This document shows positions 37,172 to 44,540 of a stretch of DNA of 64,000 nt, piece after piece. The stretch is from an uncultured Chthonomonadaceae bacterium. Its GTDB lineage: Bacteria; Armatimonadota; Chthonomonadetes; Chthonomonadales; Chthonomonadaceae. Position numbers and translations under genes: made by a program. A model generated the notes under the pieces. It made no database searches, was not told the origin of the DNA, and saw nothing but the letters and a program-made list of their open reading frames with translations. Location: positions 146,321 through 210,320 of the forward strand of contig CAWIEK010000041.1 of NCBI GenBank assembly GCA_963835065.1, written 5' to 3'. Numbering within the stretch: the stretch's first letter is position 1; each line of letters begins with the position of its first letter.

Positions 37172-38941
37172 CTACGATGTTTTCGGGCGTGGGGAGGACA
37201 GGCCGAACAGTTGGAAGAGTTCGTCGGCGGTCAGGGCGTTGGAAATGTCGAGCGTCACGTCGTCTACCAGATCGGCGAACAGTTTGCGCTTGGATTTCAG
37301 GGTTTCGTCAATGCGCTCCTCAATGGTGTTGGCGCAGATGTAGCGGTACACGGTGACGGGGAAGGGCTGGCCCATGCGGTGGGCGCGGCTGTCGGCCTGC
37401 TCCTCAATGGCCGGGTTCCACCAGCGATCCAGATGAAACACGTAGGACGCGGCCTGCAAGTTTAAGCCCACGCCGCCCGCCCGCAACGAGAGCAGTAAGG
37501 CTTTGTACATGGGATCGGTCATAAAGCGGTTCACCACTTCGGCGCGTCTCCCCGGTGACAGACTGCCCGTAAATTCCAATGGACGAAACGCTTTGAGAAC
37601 CTGCGCCAATTTGCCGACGCCGAACGTTTCGTCCGTAAACTGCGAAAAGATCAGGGCGCGGTGTCCCTCCTGCGTCAAGGTTTCCATGCGCTGCGCAATG
37701 TCGCGCAGTTTGGCCAACTCGCCACTGGCGGGGTCCACGTTGCAAATCTGCTTCAAGCGCGTAATCAGTTCCAGAACATGCGTAATGGTCAAGTCCGCGC
37801 CGTAGTGCGCCAATCGCAAAATGCCCTCTTTTTCCGCGCGGTCGTATGCCATGCGCTGCAAGGGCGGAAGTTCCAATACCAGTTCGTGAATGCGTTTGGG
37901 CGGCAGGTCGCGCAGCACGTCCTGCTTTTTGCGCCGCAGTTGTACAGCCCGCAACTGCGCCACAATCTCGGCGGGCGCAGACGGCAAGGAAAACGGCTGT
38001 CCCGGTTCGCCATGCAAAAATTCCAGCAGGGAAACAATATCATCCAGGCTGTTTTCCAGCGGCGTTCCCGTCAGCGCCCATCGCCGCAGTCGCCGCAAAC
38101 GCTTGCAGGCAATCGCATTGCCCGACTCGCGGTTTTTAATGCGCGACGCTTCATCCAAAACCACTACATCCCACGTTTGGCGCGAAACGGGGCTGTCGGC
38201 GATTTCCACCACGTCCATGCGCAGGGTTTCGTAACTGACCAGCCGAACATGGGCGGGAACGCGCCACAGATTGCTGCGCTCCCCCGCCGCGCCGCTGATG
38301 GTGACAGCCTGCAAATCCGGCGCCCACCGCGTCAACTCCCGCCTCCACTGCGCCAGAAGCGAAGCCGGCACAACCACAAGCGCCGAACCGATGCGTTGCT
38401 GAAAAAACAGGATACGCAATGCGGCAACCGCTTGAATCCCCTTGCCCAGTCCCATATCGTCGGCGAGCAGCAGTTCGCGGCGGGACAATAAAGCGGCAAT
38501 GCCGTCCTGTTGGTAGGGCAGCAGGGGCGCGGGCCATTCCAAAACGCCGTTTGGCGCGGTGAGATGGGAAAGCGGGGGTTGCAAGCGGGCGGCAAGGCGG
38601 CGCAGGAAATCGTCTTCGGAAGAAAGCGGGCGCGCGGGAGACGGGATTGGGTCGTCTTCGAGTTCGCCCTCGCGGAAGGCGGGAATCTCATCCCACATAT
38701 TTTGCAGGTCGAACCAGCCGATAGGGTAGGCGCGGGCGGCGGCCATTTCCAAACCGGCGCTGTCGCCAATCGCGGGCAATCCCGGCAACAACTGCCCTGC
38801 CGGACGGACACGAGCAAGCCCGACGCGAAAATCTTCGATGGCAAGGGCAACCGGCGCGGGAACGTCGGGCGACCACTCGCGTCCCAAGCCGGGTACGCGC
38901 CCGGATACGGTTGGCTTCGGCTTGCGCGTAAACGGAATCAC
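37172..38941 (-). CDS. Stand-alone SNF2-family helicase/ATPase
   Basis: LADDMGLGK, VVLDEASRIKN, LTGTPLEN, GGVGLNL, WWNPAIEEQADSRAHRMGQ. Confidence 0.95.
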   Translation of the reverse strand: MIPFTRKPKPTVSGRVPGLGREWSPDVPAPVALAIEDFRVGLARVRPAGQLLPGLPAIGDSAGLEMAAARAYPIGWFDLQNMWDEIPAFREGELEDDPIPSPARPLSSEDDFLRRLAARLQPPLSHLTAPNGVLEWPAPLLPYQQDGIAALLSRRELLLADDMGLGKGIQAVAALRILFFQQRIGSALVVVPASLLAQWRRELTRWAPDLQAVTISGAAGERSNLWRVPAHVRLVSYETLRMDVVEIADSPVSRQTWDVVVLDEASRIKNRESGNAIACKRLRRLRRWALTGTPLENSLDDIVSLLEFLHGEPGQPFSLPSAPAEIVAQLRAVQLRRKKQDVLRDLPPKRIHELVLELPPLQRMAYDRAEKEGILRLAHYGADLTITHVLELITRLKQICNVDPASGELAKLRDIAQRMETLTQEGHRALIFSQFTDETFGVGKLAQVLKAFRPLEFTGSLSPGRRAEVVNRFMTDPMYKALLLSLRAGGVGLNLQAASYVFHLDRWWNPAIEEQADSRAHRMGQPFPVTVYRYICANTIEERIDETLKSKRKLFADLVDDVTLDISNALTADELFQLFGLSSPRPKTS

Positions 38942-39543
38942 GTTTCGCGCTCCCCCGTCGGAACGCGCCTGCTTGTTGAAGCCGATGCAGCAACGTTTGT
39001 CGCCGAATTCGTACCGCGCGTTCCGCTTCCGCTTTGAAACGCTTCCGGGTAGGCAAGGCGCAGGCCGTCGCGCAGGCGGGCAAACGGCTCCTCGACAAAC
39101 CCGCGCTTCGCCAGATGCTCGTACAGCGCGTGCGCCCTCATGCCCGATGCGGGCGGCTCATTAATCCAGCTCCACGCAAGCGGCGCGTCCGGTTCTCCTT
39201 CCGCGACCTGGGCAAATGGAATGGACGGAGCCAGTTCGTCACGGCAAAAATCGGGCGTACCGAGCGTGTCCTTGCACACCAGCAAATCGGGTTCGCGCTG
39301 GCAGGCATCAAACAGGGAATGTACCAGCACAACCGTACCCACCGCCCGAACTTTCTCTTCCGGCCACAAAAACCCGCCCGGCGCATCCACCACATTGTGA
39401 ACGAATTCCAGCGGCTGCCCCCGCCCGTCAATCAGCAGCAGCGCCCCCACCAACTGCCGCGCCGAACGCGCCCGCTGCACGTCCACAAACGCGGCAATCC
39501 CCTCCTGCGCGGCGCGCGGCAATTTTCGATAGGGTACGGGCAT
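38938..39543 (-). CDS. Hypothetical 201-aa protein coupled to the SNF2 gene
   Basis: GTGA overlap with SNF2; GALLLIDGRGQPLEF and EEPFARL motifs. Confidence 0.8.
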   Translation of the reverse strand: MPVPYRKLPRAAQEGIAAFVDVQRARSARQLVGALLLIDGRGQPLEFVHNVVDAPGGFLWPEEKVRAVGTVVLVHSLFDACQREPDLLVCKDTLGTPDFCRDELAPSIPFAQVAEGEPDAPLAWSWINEPPASGMRAHALYEHLAKRGFVEEPFARLRDGLRLAYPEAFQSGSGTRGTNSATNVAASASTSRRVPTGERET

Positions 39544-39597
39544 TACTCACTCGTTTCTTCGGCAGCTTCGGCTTCGGCAAGGGTTTGGTCGGCGATT
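39543..39597 (-). repeat. Displaced duplicate of the 3' end of the BrxD-like gene (partner at 41171-41225)
   Basis: 33-bp core with 2 mismatches; encodes IADQTLAEAEAAEETSE*, versus ISDQTLAEAEATEDANE*. Confidence 0.85.
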
Positions 39598-39634
39598 CAG
39601 TGTTTCGCTTTTAGCAGAAAATTTTGTACGCGGC

Positions 39635-39982
39635 TTATATTATCGGGTTGGTGAGAGTATGCACTGTCGTCAAAACAGCCAACAGTTTTTCTGTTTTTAA
39701 TGTGCCTACTCTTTTGGTTATAAGCGCCTCATCCGCAGTAAACAAGTATGTCGGCCTTATATAACAACGCTTGTTCAAAGTACCGCCTTCTATATCCCCT
39801 GCTTCTACTTCAATAATGCCCGGCGTTGGCACTGATTGGGTTGTTACCGCACAAACAAGATAATGTTCGCTTGCATTGTAAGGCCAGGACGCTAAAACTA
39901 AGACAGGCCGGTTTTTGAAACCGGCGGATTCAGTAAACGGAAATGGAACAACCACAACATCTCCCTTCACAAATCGCGCCAA
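39635..39982 (-). CDS. mazF: PemK/MazF family type II toxin
   Basis: KGDVVVVPFPFT...KNRPVLVLA, CAVTT. Confidence 0.9.
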   Translation of the reverse strand: MARFVKGDVVVVPFPFTESAGFKNRPVLVLASWPYNASEHYLVCAVTTQSVPTPGIIEVEAGDIEGGTLNKRCYIRPTYLFTADEALITKRVGTLKTEKLLAVLTTVHTLTNPII

Positions 39983-40227
39983 GCCTCATCCTCCTCCGGC
40001 GTATCCCACAATTGTCGAAGCGTGTACTCACTAGCCAAAGCCGTACCTTTTACTAAGAGACTATCATCAAGCATCTCCCAATCATCCAAAACTACGTCTG
40101 ATTGAGAAGTATTAGATAAGGGAGCAACAGGCGTAATTTTTGTGCCCGTGCCTTCCGCAGATATGTGTAAAGAGGAAGCGGATTTTCTTTTACGCGAAAG
40201 TTTTCGGCGAACATCTACAGCAGCCAT
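39967..40227 (-). CDS. Putative antitoxin
   Basis: C-terminal LASEYTLRQLWDTPEEDEAWRDL typical of partners of this toxin clade; overlaps the toxin; TTGACA-17-CACAAT at 40268-40296. Confidence 0.8.
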   Translation of the reverse strand: MAAVDVRRKLSRKRKSASSLHISAEGTGTKITPVAPLSNTSQSDVVLDDWEMLDDSLLVKGTALASEYTLRQLWDTPEEDEAWRDL

Positions 40228-40368
40228 ATTTCTATCCTCCGACACGCAGACATACAATTATAGAATTATTGTGTCACGATTTCCTTCTAATGTCAAAGAA
40301 CAACCGTTGATTGCGTAGCTCTTTGAGGAGACAGGCGTTAGCCACCGGCGTAAGGGGCATGTCTGAAC

Positions 40369-40993
40369 TCAGGCGGCGGCTTTTTGCAGCATTTCGCCGA
40401 CAAACGTTTTTAGTTGGCAGGCGAACGGATGCTGCCGCAACGCGCTGAAATCCAAATGCGCCAGCTGGCTTTCAAGCGCCTGTGTAAATGCGTCGGGCGA
40501 GGACACTTGCATGGCTTGCATCAGGATTTGCCGGGGCACATATTGACCGCGTATGAATTGTTCCTCCGTAAGCGGGTGTCCGACAAGCGCCTCCACGATG
40601 TTTCTATCGGAGAACAGCAATGCCTCTATGCTGGGAACCGCCAGAAGTATTCGCCACCGTGAACGCGCCGCCACTTGTCCCATCGCGTCTTCCAGAAATT
40701 CCTCTTGTGTACGAATGTTCTGCGCGTCGGAAGAGTTGGCGTTCAAGACTAACATAGTTGGCTGACGACGCGGCGACAAACCAAATACAATCAGCGTCTG
40801 CGGGCACGTTCAAGACTAACATAGTTGGCTGACGACGCGCTGCCAGCAAAGAACGCGCCATTGTATCTGCGCTGTCCCGCCCGCCCGCTGATACTACGCG
40901 AATATCATCGCGTTCCAGAGCAAACTTCGGTTTTAGAAGTTCCCGCACATACACAATATCCGATTTACTTTCCACGACGATGTAGCATGTCAT
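40369..40993 (-). pseudogene. TOPRIM-like protein disrupted by a 67-bp insertion
   Basis: YIVVESKSD, VVSAGG, AVPSIEALL; removing 67 bp restores one 185-aa ORF. Confidence 0.7.
40740..40839. repeat. 33-bp perfect direct repeat flanking a 34-bp unique insert
   Basis: CGTTCAAGACTAACATAGTTGGCTGACGACGCG at 40740-40772 and 40807-40839. Confidence 0.95.
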
Positions 40994-41170
40994 AGCAGGT
41001 GATCCTCCACAAGCAGGTCAGGAAGCCCAAATTCCACAGCATAACGAATTACCTGCTTCCCAATCCGGCAACGGGTCTGCATTACGAACAGCAGTCCACA
41101 AATCACGCACATCTGAATAGGTATACGCGCTAATCTGCTGCTCATAGTCTCGTGCCAATTCAACTCCTCA

Positions 41171-42412
41171 CTACTCGTTGGCGTCTTCCGTGGCTTCGGC
41201 TTCGGCAAGGGTTTGATCGGAGATTTCGGAGGTGTCGAATTGCACGTCGCCGCTTTCTACATCCGCCGTGTACTCCGGGTAGTAGCGGTGCAGGTCCCAA
41301 AGCGTGATCCATCGGCGGATTTCGGAGCGGATGGTAGTTCGTACCTCGCCGCGAACGCGGGGCAGAAACGGGACGCTGGTGTTGTATGCCTGCTCATACA
41401 GGTTTTTGACCCGGTACTTGACCTGCTCCTCCTGTTCGGGCGTGGGCGATTCCAGATAAAACGGTTTTTTCAGCAAGTTGATGCCGCGCAGGGCGCGTAA
41501 GTCCCGCTCGTCGGCAGTGCCGCTGCTGCTGTTGACGTTGGCAAGAAACCGCTGCTCGTCGCGCGTGCCGCCGGTAACCGTATCGTTGATAAACCCCTGT
41601 GTCATGGTGAAGACCGGCAAAATCGCGCTGCCCTCCTGTTGCGCCACATCGCTCCACCAGCCCAATTCCTGATATGCGCTCAAACGCTGCTTGACCGAGA
41701 ACCTGGCAATACGATCCAACTCGTCGAATAGCACCACCAGCCCTTTGCCGCCGCCTGCCCGGTACAAGCGCGCCAGCAGGCGGATACGGTCATGCGCAAC
41801 AAGGGCGTTGCGCGGGCCGCTTAAATCGAAACTGACGAGCGCGCCGAGTTCCTTGAGCTTTTGCCGCACGACCGCTTTGGGCAAAAACTTGCCCTCGAAA
41901 TCCTCCAGCACCTGCGCCCGCAGTTCCTCATCCGCCCGGAATTCCTGATAAATATGCAGCAGCGCGCGAAAGCGATCATCCAGGCCGGCTTCGCGCGTCC
42001 ACGCTTTGAGATCGTTGAATGCGGTGCTGCTCGTGTTCAAATTAGCGGCGAGAGCGCGCAGGGCTGTGTCCGCGTTGCCGGGAGCCTGCGCTGCTTCCGC
42101 AAGGGTTCGCAGCACAATCGGCGCGTTTCCAAGTGGCATTTCCGGGCTGACGACAACAAAACTCGTGACAAACCCCTGCTGCGCCGCCACAGCCTGCAAA
42201 TAATTGAGCAGGTGCGATTTGCCCGCCCCGAAGTTGGCGGAAACCATAATCGGCGCTGCGCCCCGGCCCTCCGCCAGAGCTTCCAATCCCGCGTCGAACT
42301 GCGCCTTCACTTCTGTCTGCGTGGTTCCTAATTGCGTGACCGCATGGCGGCTCGGCACCCCCGACCGCAGCGACTCAATCGCGCTCCGCGCCGCCACTGC
42401 TTCTGCGTCCAT
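41171..42412 (-). CDS. BrxD/DUF2791-like P-loop ATPase, intact motifs
   Basis: IESLRSGVP, Walker A ANFGAGKSH, Walker B LVVLFDE; SD GGAGG. Confidence 0.85.
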   Translation of the reverse strand: MDAEAVAARSAIESLRSGVPSRHAVTQLGTTQTEVKAQFDAGLEALAEGRGAAPIMVSANFGAGKSHLLNYLQAVAAQQGFVTSFVVVSPEMPLGNAPIVLRTLAEAAQAPGNADTALRALAANLNTSSTAFNDLKAWTREAGLDDRFRALLHIYQEFRADEELRAQVLEDFEGKFLPKAVVRQKLKELGALVSFDLSGPRNALVAHDRIRLLARLYRAGGGKGLVVLFDELDRIARFSVKQRLSAYQELGWWSDVAQQEGSAILPVFTMTQGFINDTVTGGTRDEQRFLANVNSSSGTADERDLRALRGINLLKKPFYLESPTPEQEEQVKYRVKNLYEQAYNTSVPFLPRVRGEVRTTIRSEIRRWITLWDLHRYYPEYTADVESGDVQFDTSEISDQTLAEAEATEDANE

Positions 42413-42432
42413 TTTCTGCCTCCATTCAAGAA

Positions 42433-42562
42433 AAGGATGAAGGATGAAGGATGAAGGATGAAGTGGGTGTTAGGTGTTGGGTATTAGGTGTTGGGGAGTT
42501 CTGTTCCCTGTTCCCTGTTTCCTGTTCCCTAAATTCATCCTTCATCCTTCATCCTTCATCCT
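42433..42562. repeat. Nested heptamer arrays: (AAGGATG)n ... (CATCCTT)n enclosing (GGTGTTA)n and (CTGTTCC)n
   Basis: Direct reading. Confidence 0.85.
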
Positions 42563-43668
42563 TTGTTTTCCCCTACATGTACTAAAGCCGCAGCGGGGTT
42601 CGCTCGGCGGGTGTCGCGGACTTCCAGGCCAATGCGGGTTTGCAGGGCGTTGTAGTTGTTGTAGTTGCGGCGCGAAGCGGGGTCGTAAAAGGCGGGGCGA
42701 GTGAGGACAACCAGCAGGAACCGCTCGAAGCTGTCAATCTCGTCAATGAAGCGGCGAAGCAGGGCCAGCATCTGCATGTAGGCCGCGTCGCTGTACGTCA
42801 CGGTCGGTTCCTGTCCGACTTCCGCCCGCAATGCCGCCAGTTCCTGCGCGGTTGCGCCGCGCGCCAGCGCCTCGTCTATACGGCGTAATTGCTCGGCCAA
42901 TCGCTGAGTGGTCGGGATTTTCTTGTGTTCGTAGGGGCGAAAGTCCAGCGTCACGACAAGCCCGTTGTGCCCGGTGCGCGGCAGCCAGCGACAGAAGGAA
43001 ACCAGCATGGAACGCGCGTTCGCCAGGCTGATACGCTCATAAATCTGTACCCGCTTGAGCGCGTTGGCCGCGCCGGGCATGGTTTTGCCCGCAAACCATT
43101 TGAGCAGCACTTCTTCCGTTGTCGGCGAAACCGCGTCAGGCACAAGCTGCGCCCGTCCCAATGCCGTAACCGCCGTACGAAATTCCAGCGACATGGCGTG
43201 GTCGCGCAGTTGCGTGGTGGCGAATTCGCGTTGGTACTGGTTCAGCAAATCCTGCGAATTGCGGTCGTTGTCCTGCGCGATGCCATCCAGGTCGTCGAGT
43301 TGCCGATGGGCGGCAACATAGATACCGCGCTCTTCCAGATACCGCCGCGCCTGCTCCCGCGCCCACGCTTTCCAATCTACATTCGATGTAACCTCAAAAA
43401 AGAAGCGGTCAATGCGGTGCAGCTCTTTGCGCTTACCGCCCGCTTCCAGTTTCGCCGGGTCCAAGAGAACGTAATAGTAGTTTTCCTCGCGCGCCCGCTC
43501 CCGCATCCGCTCCTGCACATAGCTCAAATGCGCGTCACTGCCGCTGACCACTTTCACGGACGAGCCGCCGGACTTGATGTAATCCAGCAGGCACTCCTGA
43601 TCCAACGCCCGCAGCAGTTCGTCCGGCGCCACCAGCAGCCGCGCGTTCAGAGCCTCCGTTGTCAGCAT
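42556..43668 (-). CDS. Second BrxD/DUF2791-like protein, Walker A lost
   Basis: GGSSVKVVSG without GKS/T, GHNGLVVTLD, LRRFIDEID, YNALQTRI; SD GGAGG. Confidence 0.7.
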   Translation of the reverse strand: MLTTEALNARLLVAPDELLRALDQECLLDYIKSGGSSVKVVSGSDAHLSYVQERMRERAREENYYYVLLDPAKLEAGGKRKELHRIDRFFFEVTSNVDWKAWAREQARRYLEERGIYVAAHRQLDDLDGIAQDNDRNSQDLLNQYQREFATTQLRDHAMSLEFRTAVTALGRAQLVPDAVSPTTEEVLLKWFAGKTMPGAANALKRVQIYERISLANARSMLVSFCRWLPRTGHNGLVVTLDFRPYEHKKIPTTQRLAEQLRRIDEALARGATAQELAALRAEVGQEPTVTYSDAAYMQMLALLRRFIDEIDSFERFLLVVLTRPAFYDPASRRNYNNYNALQTRIGLEVRDTRRANPAAALVHVGENKG

Positions 43669-43685
43669 GGAAACCTCCAATAAAA

Positions 43686-43779
43686 GTGATGAGTGATGAA
43701 TGATGAGTAAGAAGCCCAGGTTGAACGTATAGCCTCATCTTGTGAGTTGAATTACATTCATCATTCATCATTCATCATT
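43686..43779. repeat. Inverted heptamer arrays (TGATGAR)n / (TTCATCA)n
   Basis: Direct reading. Confidence 0.8.
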
Positions 43780-43784
43780 TGCAC

Positions 43785-44540
43785 TTACAGAAACCGAATG
43801 CCATAGTAGAGTATAGGGCGGCCATCTTCGGAAATCACGCTGAAAAGGTCTCGCTCTTTGACGTTTCCGGCAGGATAAACAATCTCGAATTTACGCCCGG
43901 AGCGGGTCACGCGGAGTTCGGAGCGGTGCATGGCGTAAATGGCCTGCCCGAACGCGGCGGGCGGGTTTTCCTTTTTCCAGCCGGGTGTGAGGCTGAACAG
44001 ATCGTAAACGTCGCGGAATCTTACAAAAGGCTGATCGCCTTTATCCAGGCGTTGGGCAACGGACAAAAGGCTATCGAGAAATTCCTGCGAGTTGGCGGAT
44101 TGCGCCCGGTCACGCAGGCGTTTGAGTTCCGCGGCGACAATTTGCGGGCGGAGGGCGGGCCAGTTCACTTTCCCGATTTGCAGGACGCCCCTGGCCCCGG
44201 ATGCGCGAATGACGACCGGCGAAGAGACCAGCGTTTCCCCTTCTTCCAACACGCGCAGGCCGAATTTGTCCGACGCAGTGGCTTGCAATTCGCGCCGCCA
44301 TTCCTCGCTTTCCAGATAGGTTCGCGCATCAAATGTCCAATTTTGCGCGGCGGCCTGCGTGGGTGCGGTCAGCGAGGGAGCCAGTTCGCCCGCCTGTGTC
44401 ATCGCCTTTTGCATATTGCCGACATGCCCGATTTGACAGGCTTTTTTCCACGTTTTCAGCGTCCCGACATACCGATTGGCGGCTTTGAGCAGGTCATCTA
44501 CCTGCGCTTCCTGCGCCCGCAATTCTTCTTCCAGCGTCAC
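43785..44540 (-). CDS. Hypothetical 251-aa protein, first gene of the ATPase cluster
   Basis: SD AGGAG + GTG; helical N-terminus, possible wHTH-like C-terminus. Confidence 0.8.
   Translation of the reverse strand: MTLEEELRAQEAQVDDLLKAANRYVGTLKTWKKACQIGHVGNMQKAMTQAGELAPSLTAPTQAAAQNWTFDARTYLESEEWRRELQATASDKFGLRVLEEGETLVSSPVVIRASGARGVLQIGKVNWPALRPQIVAAELKRLRDRAQSANSQEFLDSLLSVAQRLDKGDQPFVRFRDVYDLFSLTPGWKKENPPAAFGQAIYAMHRSELRVTRSGRKFEIVYPAGNVKERDLFSVISEDGRPILYYGIRFL

Follow-up and report, generated by a model that had tools for sequence, protein, structure and literature searches.

The window analysed here is a stretch of 64,000 nt from the genome of an uncultured Chthonomonadaceae bacterium (contig C41 of the assembly). 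Between positions 37172 and 44540, its minus strand carries a gene cluster resembling a defence island, and within this cluster a DUF4276/TOPRIM-like gene is interrupted by a short unit consisting of a repeat, an insert and a second repeat. The features of this region are as follows.

37172-38941, minus strand: SNF2 helicase gene
38938-39543, minus strand: unknown gene
39635-39982, minus strand: PemK/MazF-like gene
40993..40369, minus strand: interrupted DUF4276/TOPRIM-like gene, 185 aa long once the insertion is removed but split into two overlapping frames as it stands
40993-40604, minus strand: N-terminal ORF, 129 aa, out of frame
running to 40369, minus strand: C-terminal ORF, with a 128-aa fragment (P0001) whose start ATG lies at 40755, inside copy 1
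40740..40772, no strand: copy 1 of the duplicated target, apparently 33 nt, true duplication likely 30-33 nt
40773..40806, no strand: insert of 34 nt (34-37 nt as the register varies), a likely spacer with no source found in the sequence sets searched
40807..40839, no strand: second copy of the duplicated target (copy 2), with the same sequence as copy 1
41171-42412 and 42556-43680, minus strand: two BrxD-like ATPase genes, scoring under the NCBIfam cut-off
43785-44540, minus strand: unknown gene

Several of the defence-island-like genes are matched by contigs in public runs X3 and X4. Inverted heptamer-repeat arms lie between genes at 42432-42564 and 43684-43780, and belong to a dispersed repeat family that is abundant in the public runs too.

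The two copies are identical at 33/33 nt and enclose 34 nt. In the whole 8.0-Mb, 71-contig genome the 33-mer is restricted to this unit, with no third copy, and no other match to the insert exceeds 18 nt. This bears out the first-pass annotation, which had described a perfect 33-bp duplication around 34 bp. By chance, a perfect 28-mer should recur at one of 31 CRISPR-like spacings about 6e-9 times. The unit is a genuine feature of the assembly, namely an insertion with target duplication. When four public runs were mapped on positions 38000-44000, the bin with copy 1 and the insert had a depth of zero, an uninformative hole. Folding of the repeat is unremarkable (z of -0.6 and +1.0). A canonical CRISPR array at 40740-40839 is ruled out, as there are just two copies and these derive from coding sequence. 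A weak promoter-like site (9/12 matches) arises from the insertion at 40762-40791 on the plus strand; it spans copy 1 and the insert, lies antisense to the gene cluster and may be due to chance.

The 67 extra nucleotides shift the frame of the minus-strand gene. When this gene was read by script without them, a 185-aa product with zero internal stops was obtained, which aligns, gapless at the insertion site, with a homolog from a genome of the same genus (G001), the sole match among 40 relatives. An uninterrupted allele, one of the checks proposed at first pass, thus exists as an intact, in-frame homolog. The frameshift itself, also noted at that stage, stands. The TOPRIM-like label holds less firmly: the N-terminal piece matches Pfam OLD-like_TOPRIM at E=0.004, under the cut-off, the corresponding piece of a close relative scores above it, the C-terminal piece is DUF4276-like, and TOPRIM/DUF4276 scores of the protein are mostly under Pfam cut-offs. 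Close homolog DNA of the gene was absent from the genome contigs searched, and one distant locus was found in metagenomes.

In a closer relative, 85-89% identical and represented by one 109-kb contig, the same gene is also in two pieces. The first of these ends after residue 53, two codons into the stretch that is duplicated in C41, and the truncated product differs from the one expected of the C41 insertion. The split in this relative is probably a second, independent lesion. Since the close relative's copy is split by another lesion, the gene was probably dispensable already. Of the knock-out claimed by the first-pass annotation, the interruption is therefore retained, and the loss of a working gene is not. 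Just upstream, a 72-aa ORF at 40990-41208 weakly matches the C-terminus of an Mrr-like nuclease (E=0.011). An Mrr-like nuclease precedes the homolog of the interrupted gene in G001, and the ORF may be a remnant of such a partner gene.

The genome encodes its own adaptation machinery. Three cas1 loci are present (C44, C49 and C15), together with cas2 at C15 and C49 and a cas4 in two pieces at C15; the presence of both cas1 and cas2 answers a further point raised at first pass. Two of the loci are these.

L008:6925-8253 (C15:21059-22114): type I-B Cas1 that carries an internal insertion (about 70 aa)
L006:13100-15950 (C49): cas2, reverse transcriptase and broken cas1 with an array of 27 repeats behind them, adjoining genes for ribosomal proteins

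The locus at C15 has a type I-B/PGING-like make-up and encodes a Cas1 that scores above the Cas1b cut-off; a two-piece Pfam match like that of this Cas1 is listed for 13 of the 40 relatives. At C49, the reverse transcriptase lies upstream of the broken cas1, and the leader end and repeat found there recur at C44, beside a cas1, and at C2. Three 37-nt repeats form arrays of 27, 8 and 16 spacers, which are 26-45 nt long. An array with a 30-nt repeat holds 30 spacers of 34-42 nt, with periods of 65-72, and sits at the ends of C42 and C69; the C15 cas locus has no adjacent array. In a related genome, G013, a Cas1 with the same two-piece scoring lies beside an array whose 30-nt repeat is closely similar and whose leader is similar by eye. 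Because G013 pairs such a Cas1 with a closely similar 30-nt repeat, the 30-nt array can be assigned, by inference, to the type I-B locus.

The size of the interrupting unit is compatible with this array, a comparison that had been proposed at first pass. Its period of 67 nt falls inside the range of 65-72 and equals the median of the G013 array. Repeats of 33 nt are absent from the arrays of this genome, but true 30-nt units can seem longer when spacer ends happen to match: 4 of 28 such units here (33-34 nt) and 14 of 178 in G013 appear to have repeats of at least 33 nt. Because of this lengthening, the unit can be anything from 30+37 to 33+34, a register that the sequence cannot fix.

The target also resembles the 30-nt repeat. 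It is identical at 15/30 positions when end-anchored (p=0.0097; 0.026 corrected for four repeats), in a test that fixes one end of the duplication to one repeat end and was designed after the sites were seen.

A scan for perfect direct repeats that are unique, isolated, at least 16 nt long and spaced at periods of 17-300 revealed that this unit is not alone. Among the 70 repeats recovered, just four are 26-55 nt long (C41, C15, C53 and C35), and their periods are 67-76. A further perfect unit, C65, was tallied separately, one of its 16-mers being present three times. Altogether, four perfect sister units and one near-perfect one lie elsewhere in the genome, with periods of 61-76; together with the C41 unit, they occupy genes, an IS element and intergenic DNA. 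The sister units are listed with repeat and insert lengths in nt.

C15:7703 (L007): 31/37, just after flhB
C53:178810 (L012): 32/40
C35:23458 (L011): 35/41, with a Uma2-family gene's start codon, its ribosome site and a promoter-like box inside the duplication
C65:66283 (L013): 28/33, inside an IS gene
C34:23899 (L023): 29/41, near-perfect with one mismatch, right at an IS end

Empty alleles are available for two of these insertions: G002 carries the single-copy allele of C35, and the empty allele of C65 is found in IS copies of G001, G002 and this genome. No alignment of orthologous DNA across the C15, C53 and C34 units was obtained. The C65 unit is shorter than every array unit. Three other candidates, C49:304730, C14:2602 and C67:14077, were excluded from the class with two mismatches each, and C49:304730 is not repeat-like when end-anchored. 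Host-likeness of the inserts, judged by 11-mer counts, left no signal to read after GC matching.

Likeness to the CRISPR repeats extends to most of the sister units. C53, C15 and C34 match the 30-nt repeat at 16/30, 14/30 and 17/30 positions, respectively, and C35 matches a 37-nt repeat at 20/37; C65 resembles no repeat. The corrected p values are 0.009 for C53, 0.002 for C35, 0.09 for C15, 0.17 for C65 and 0.008 for C34. For the five perfect units, the combined Fisher p is 5e-5, or 2e-4 when C41 is omitted, modest values obtained post hoc. G or C occupies 10/10 ends of the five perfect duplications (p=0.004, post hoc). The leader-repeat junction alone gives a borderline Fisher p of 0.059, and leader plus repeat gives 0.007.

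Genomes in which cas1 was not found served as a control. No unit occurred in 1.2 of 6.6 Mb of G001 or 0.8 of 7.5 Mb of G002 (97% and 80% complete, respectively), an underpowered comparison in which 1.25 units were expected (P=0.29). In G013, which has cas1, no unit was seen outside the array in the 0.4 of 5.1 Mb scanned.

These observations are probably best explained by off-target spacer integration, most likely carried out by the genome's own type I-B Cas1-Cas2 serving the 30-nt-repeat array. This explanation is preferred because it accounts best for the dimensions of the unit, for the resemblance of its target to the repeat and for the existence of sister units. The first-pass annotation had likewise proposed a natural ectopic spacer acquisition, and the cas genes, the lengths, the repeat-like target and the sister units support that proposal. 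In the proposed mechanism, Cas1-Cas2 loaded with a processed prespacer would bind a stretch that agrees with the repeat at about half of its positions, and would attack the two strands of this stretch about 30-33 nt apart (full-site integration). Gap filling would then double the target stretch, leaving 67 extra bases. The scar may have persisted because the interrupted gene was dispensable already.

Several precedents exist for such an event, and so interpreted the unit is a natural example of a known process. Nivala, Shipman and Church (2018; as available through 10.1101/148544, PMC7054753, PMC6698737 and PMC11394691) are reported to have found that off-target integration by the E. coli type I-E system gives rise to neo-CRISPR loci. 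The unit shares with these loci a spacer-sized insert between repeat-sized chromosomal copies, in a genome with cas1 and cas2. Unlike the E. coli case, which was induced by over-expression, it is natural and fixed in the assembly; the putative enzyme is likely type I-B (30-nt repeat, 34-42-nt spacers) rather than type I-E, and, compared with the neo-CRISPR loci as described in these sources, the unit shows no expansion into an array. According to 10.1101/148544, the frequency of natural off-target integration is unclear, with circumstantial cases in two species. In a literature search conducted mostly without subscription papers, no survey of natural gene-breaking off-target spacers was found.

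In vitro, Cas1-Cas2 of P. furiosus is described as performing full-site integration at non-CRISPR DNA that shares only 43% identity with its 30-bp repeat, with a preference for G/C ends (PMC6698737). The C41 target is similar in being about half identical to a 30-bp repeat, in having G/C at both ends and in its spacing of about 30 bp. It differs from the system described there in being chromosomal, within a gene, with an apparent duplication of 33 nt and a Cas1 that bears an internal insertion of about 70 aa. In the type I-B system of H. hispanica, 29-33 bp are reported to be duplicated when repeat motifs shift (PMC4872114). This system resembles the present one in type, in its 30-bp repeat, in similar mid-repeat motifs and in the lengths of 31-33 bp that result from motif shifts. 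As described in that source, however, the H. hispanica target is a mutated true repeat behind a leader, and in C41-class units the mid-repeat motif predicted from it, at positions 11-15, is not significantly enriched (Fisher 0.17, six units).

An alternative that appears improbable is a templated insertion driven by microhomology, in which the template was left after copy 1, about 34 nt were copied from other DNA and synthesis rejoined 33 nt back, so that Cas1 is not needed. Evidence in its favour comes from C35, where a 151-nt record from an independent run exactly matches the 17 nt that end the insert together with the 8 nt that begin copy 2, then diverges, and further on matches the downstream Uma2-family gene. 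This record reads as a donor with junction microhomology. At C41, a gapped alignment links the insert's reverse complement to the 36 nt on the right side of copy 2 (taken alone, p about 0.004), but this local match reaches only about 70%. Because the match is gapped and at about 70%, while the copies are 33/33 identical, the insert is not a recent local copy. A local template-switch inversion was rejected on similar grounds: the insert is not a near-exact reverse complement of nearby DNA, and the adjacent template switching considered at first pass was not seen in exact form.

Searches for a more distant donor of the C41 insert were likewise negative. Among 68 genomes of the order, two chance-level matches were found besides the genome's own, and no donor, which speaks against the microhomology route. 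The best match among phages and plasmids had E=3-4. A 24-nt core had 0 matches in GTDB contigs and a 20-nt core had 0 in IMG/VR; a 17-nt core had 2 matches in IMG/VR, neither of which extends (20 and 19 of 38 positions). These searches yielded no protospacer for the insert either, which counts against reading it as a spacer. The spacers of the genuine arrays gave a comparable result, with full-length matches outside arrays for 0/81, so that a PAM is not derivable. The microhomology route predicts neither the narrow size class nor the likeness to CRISPR repeats, and this likeness persists without C35 (about 0.002, calculated by hand from C15, C41, C53 and C65).

An artefact of long-read sequencing or assembly is also rather unlikely. 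Here, a repeat, a garbled mirror and a repeat would stem from a single molecule sequenced in the forward, the reverse and once more the forward direction, or from a chimeric read that was mis-polished; the sequencing technology presumed is one that we infer. Consistent with this possibility, the reversed insert agrees with the repeat plus flank at 15/19 positions, 10 of them consecutive (p=0.004-0.007), and the assembly contains split genes (cas3, cas4 and RT-cas1) and single-base indels relative to relatives; the split genes suggest residual errors, and none of the four public runs covers the site. Compared with the repeat as its mirror, and with the right flank as its reverse complement, the insert reaches a score of 11 each time (p about 0.004 in either case). 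In post hoc comparisons, such a double match was seen in 0/257 real spacers and 29/6000 host 34-mers, and a single match in 11/257 and 414/6000, respectively. None of the four perfect sister units, however, shows the mirror signal (p 0.13-0.85; Fisher 0.07 when C41 is counted in), and 4 of 96 mirror tests fell below 0.01. Moreover, a relative's contig aligns gapless over 786 nt of the neighbouring gene, open-frame density is comparable to that of relatives, and an artefact would have no preference for targets that resemble the repeat.

A mini CRISPR array that is a remnant or was gained by horizontal transfer, and whose own repeat has no relation to the gene, would also present two repeats and one spacer-sized unique piece, and C34, beside an IS end, could be such a case, but this explanation is very improbable for C41, whose repeat is coding sequence of the surrounding gene, in frame with the intact homolog, has no third copy in the genome and shows no notable fold.

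Off-target spacer integration has already been shown in engineered E. coli and in vitro. Several scars in one genome would make the specificity of a type I-B integrase readable from natural target sites, and a scar that splits a gene would point to CRISPR adaptation as a source of gene-breaking mutation. The weight of the case is limited, since the units are few, no run covers the site, no spacer source was found in the searches and this gene was probably dispensable already. It is tentatively conceivable, though doubtful, that the type I-B integrase of this lineage, with its Cas1 insertion of about 70 aa and an array located off the cas contigs, goes astray at a rate that makes it a natural mutagen, having left four to six scars on one chromosome. 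If this were true, each repeat-spacer-repeat scar could seed a new array.
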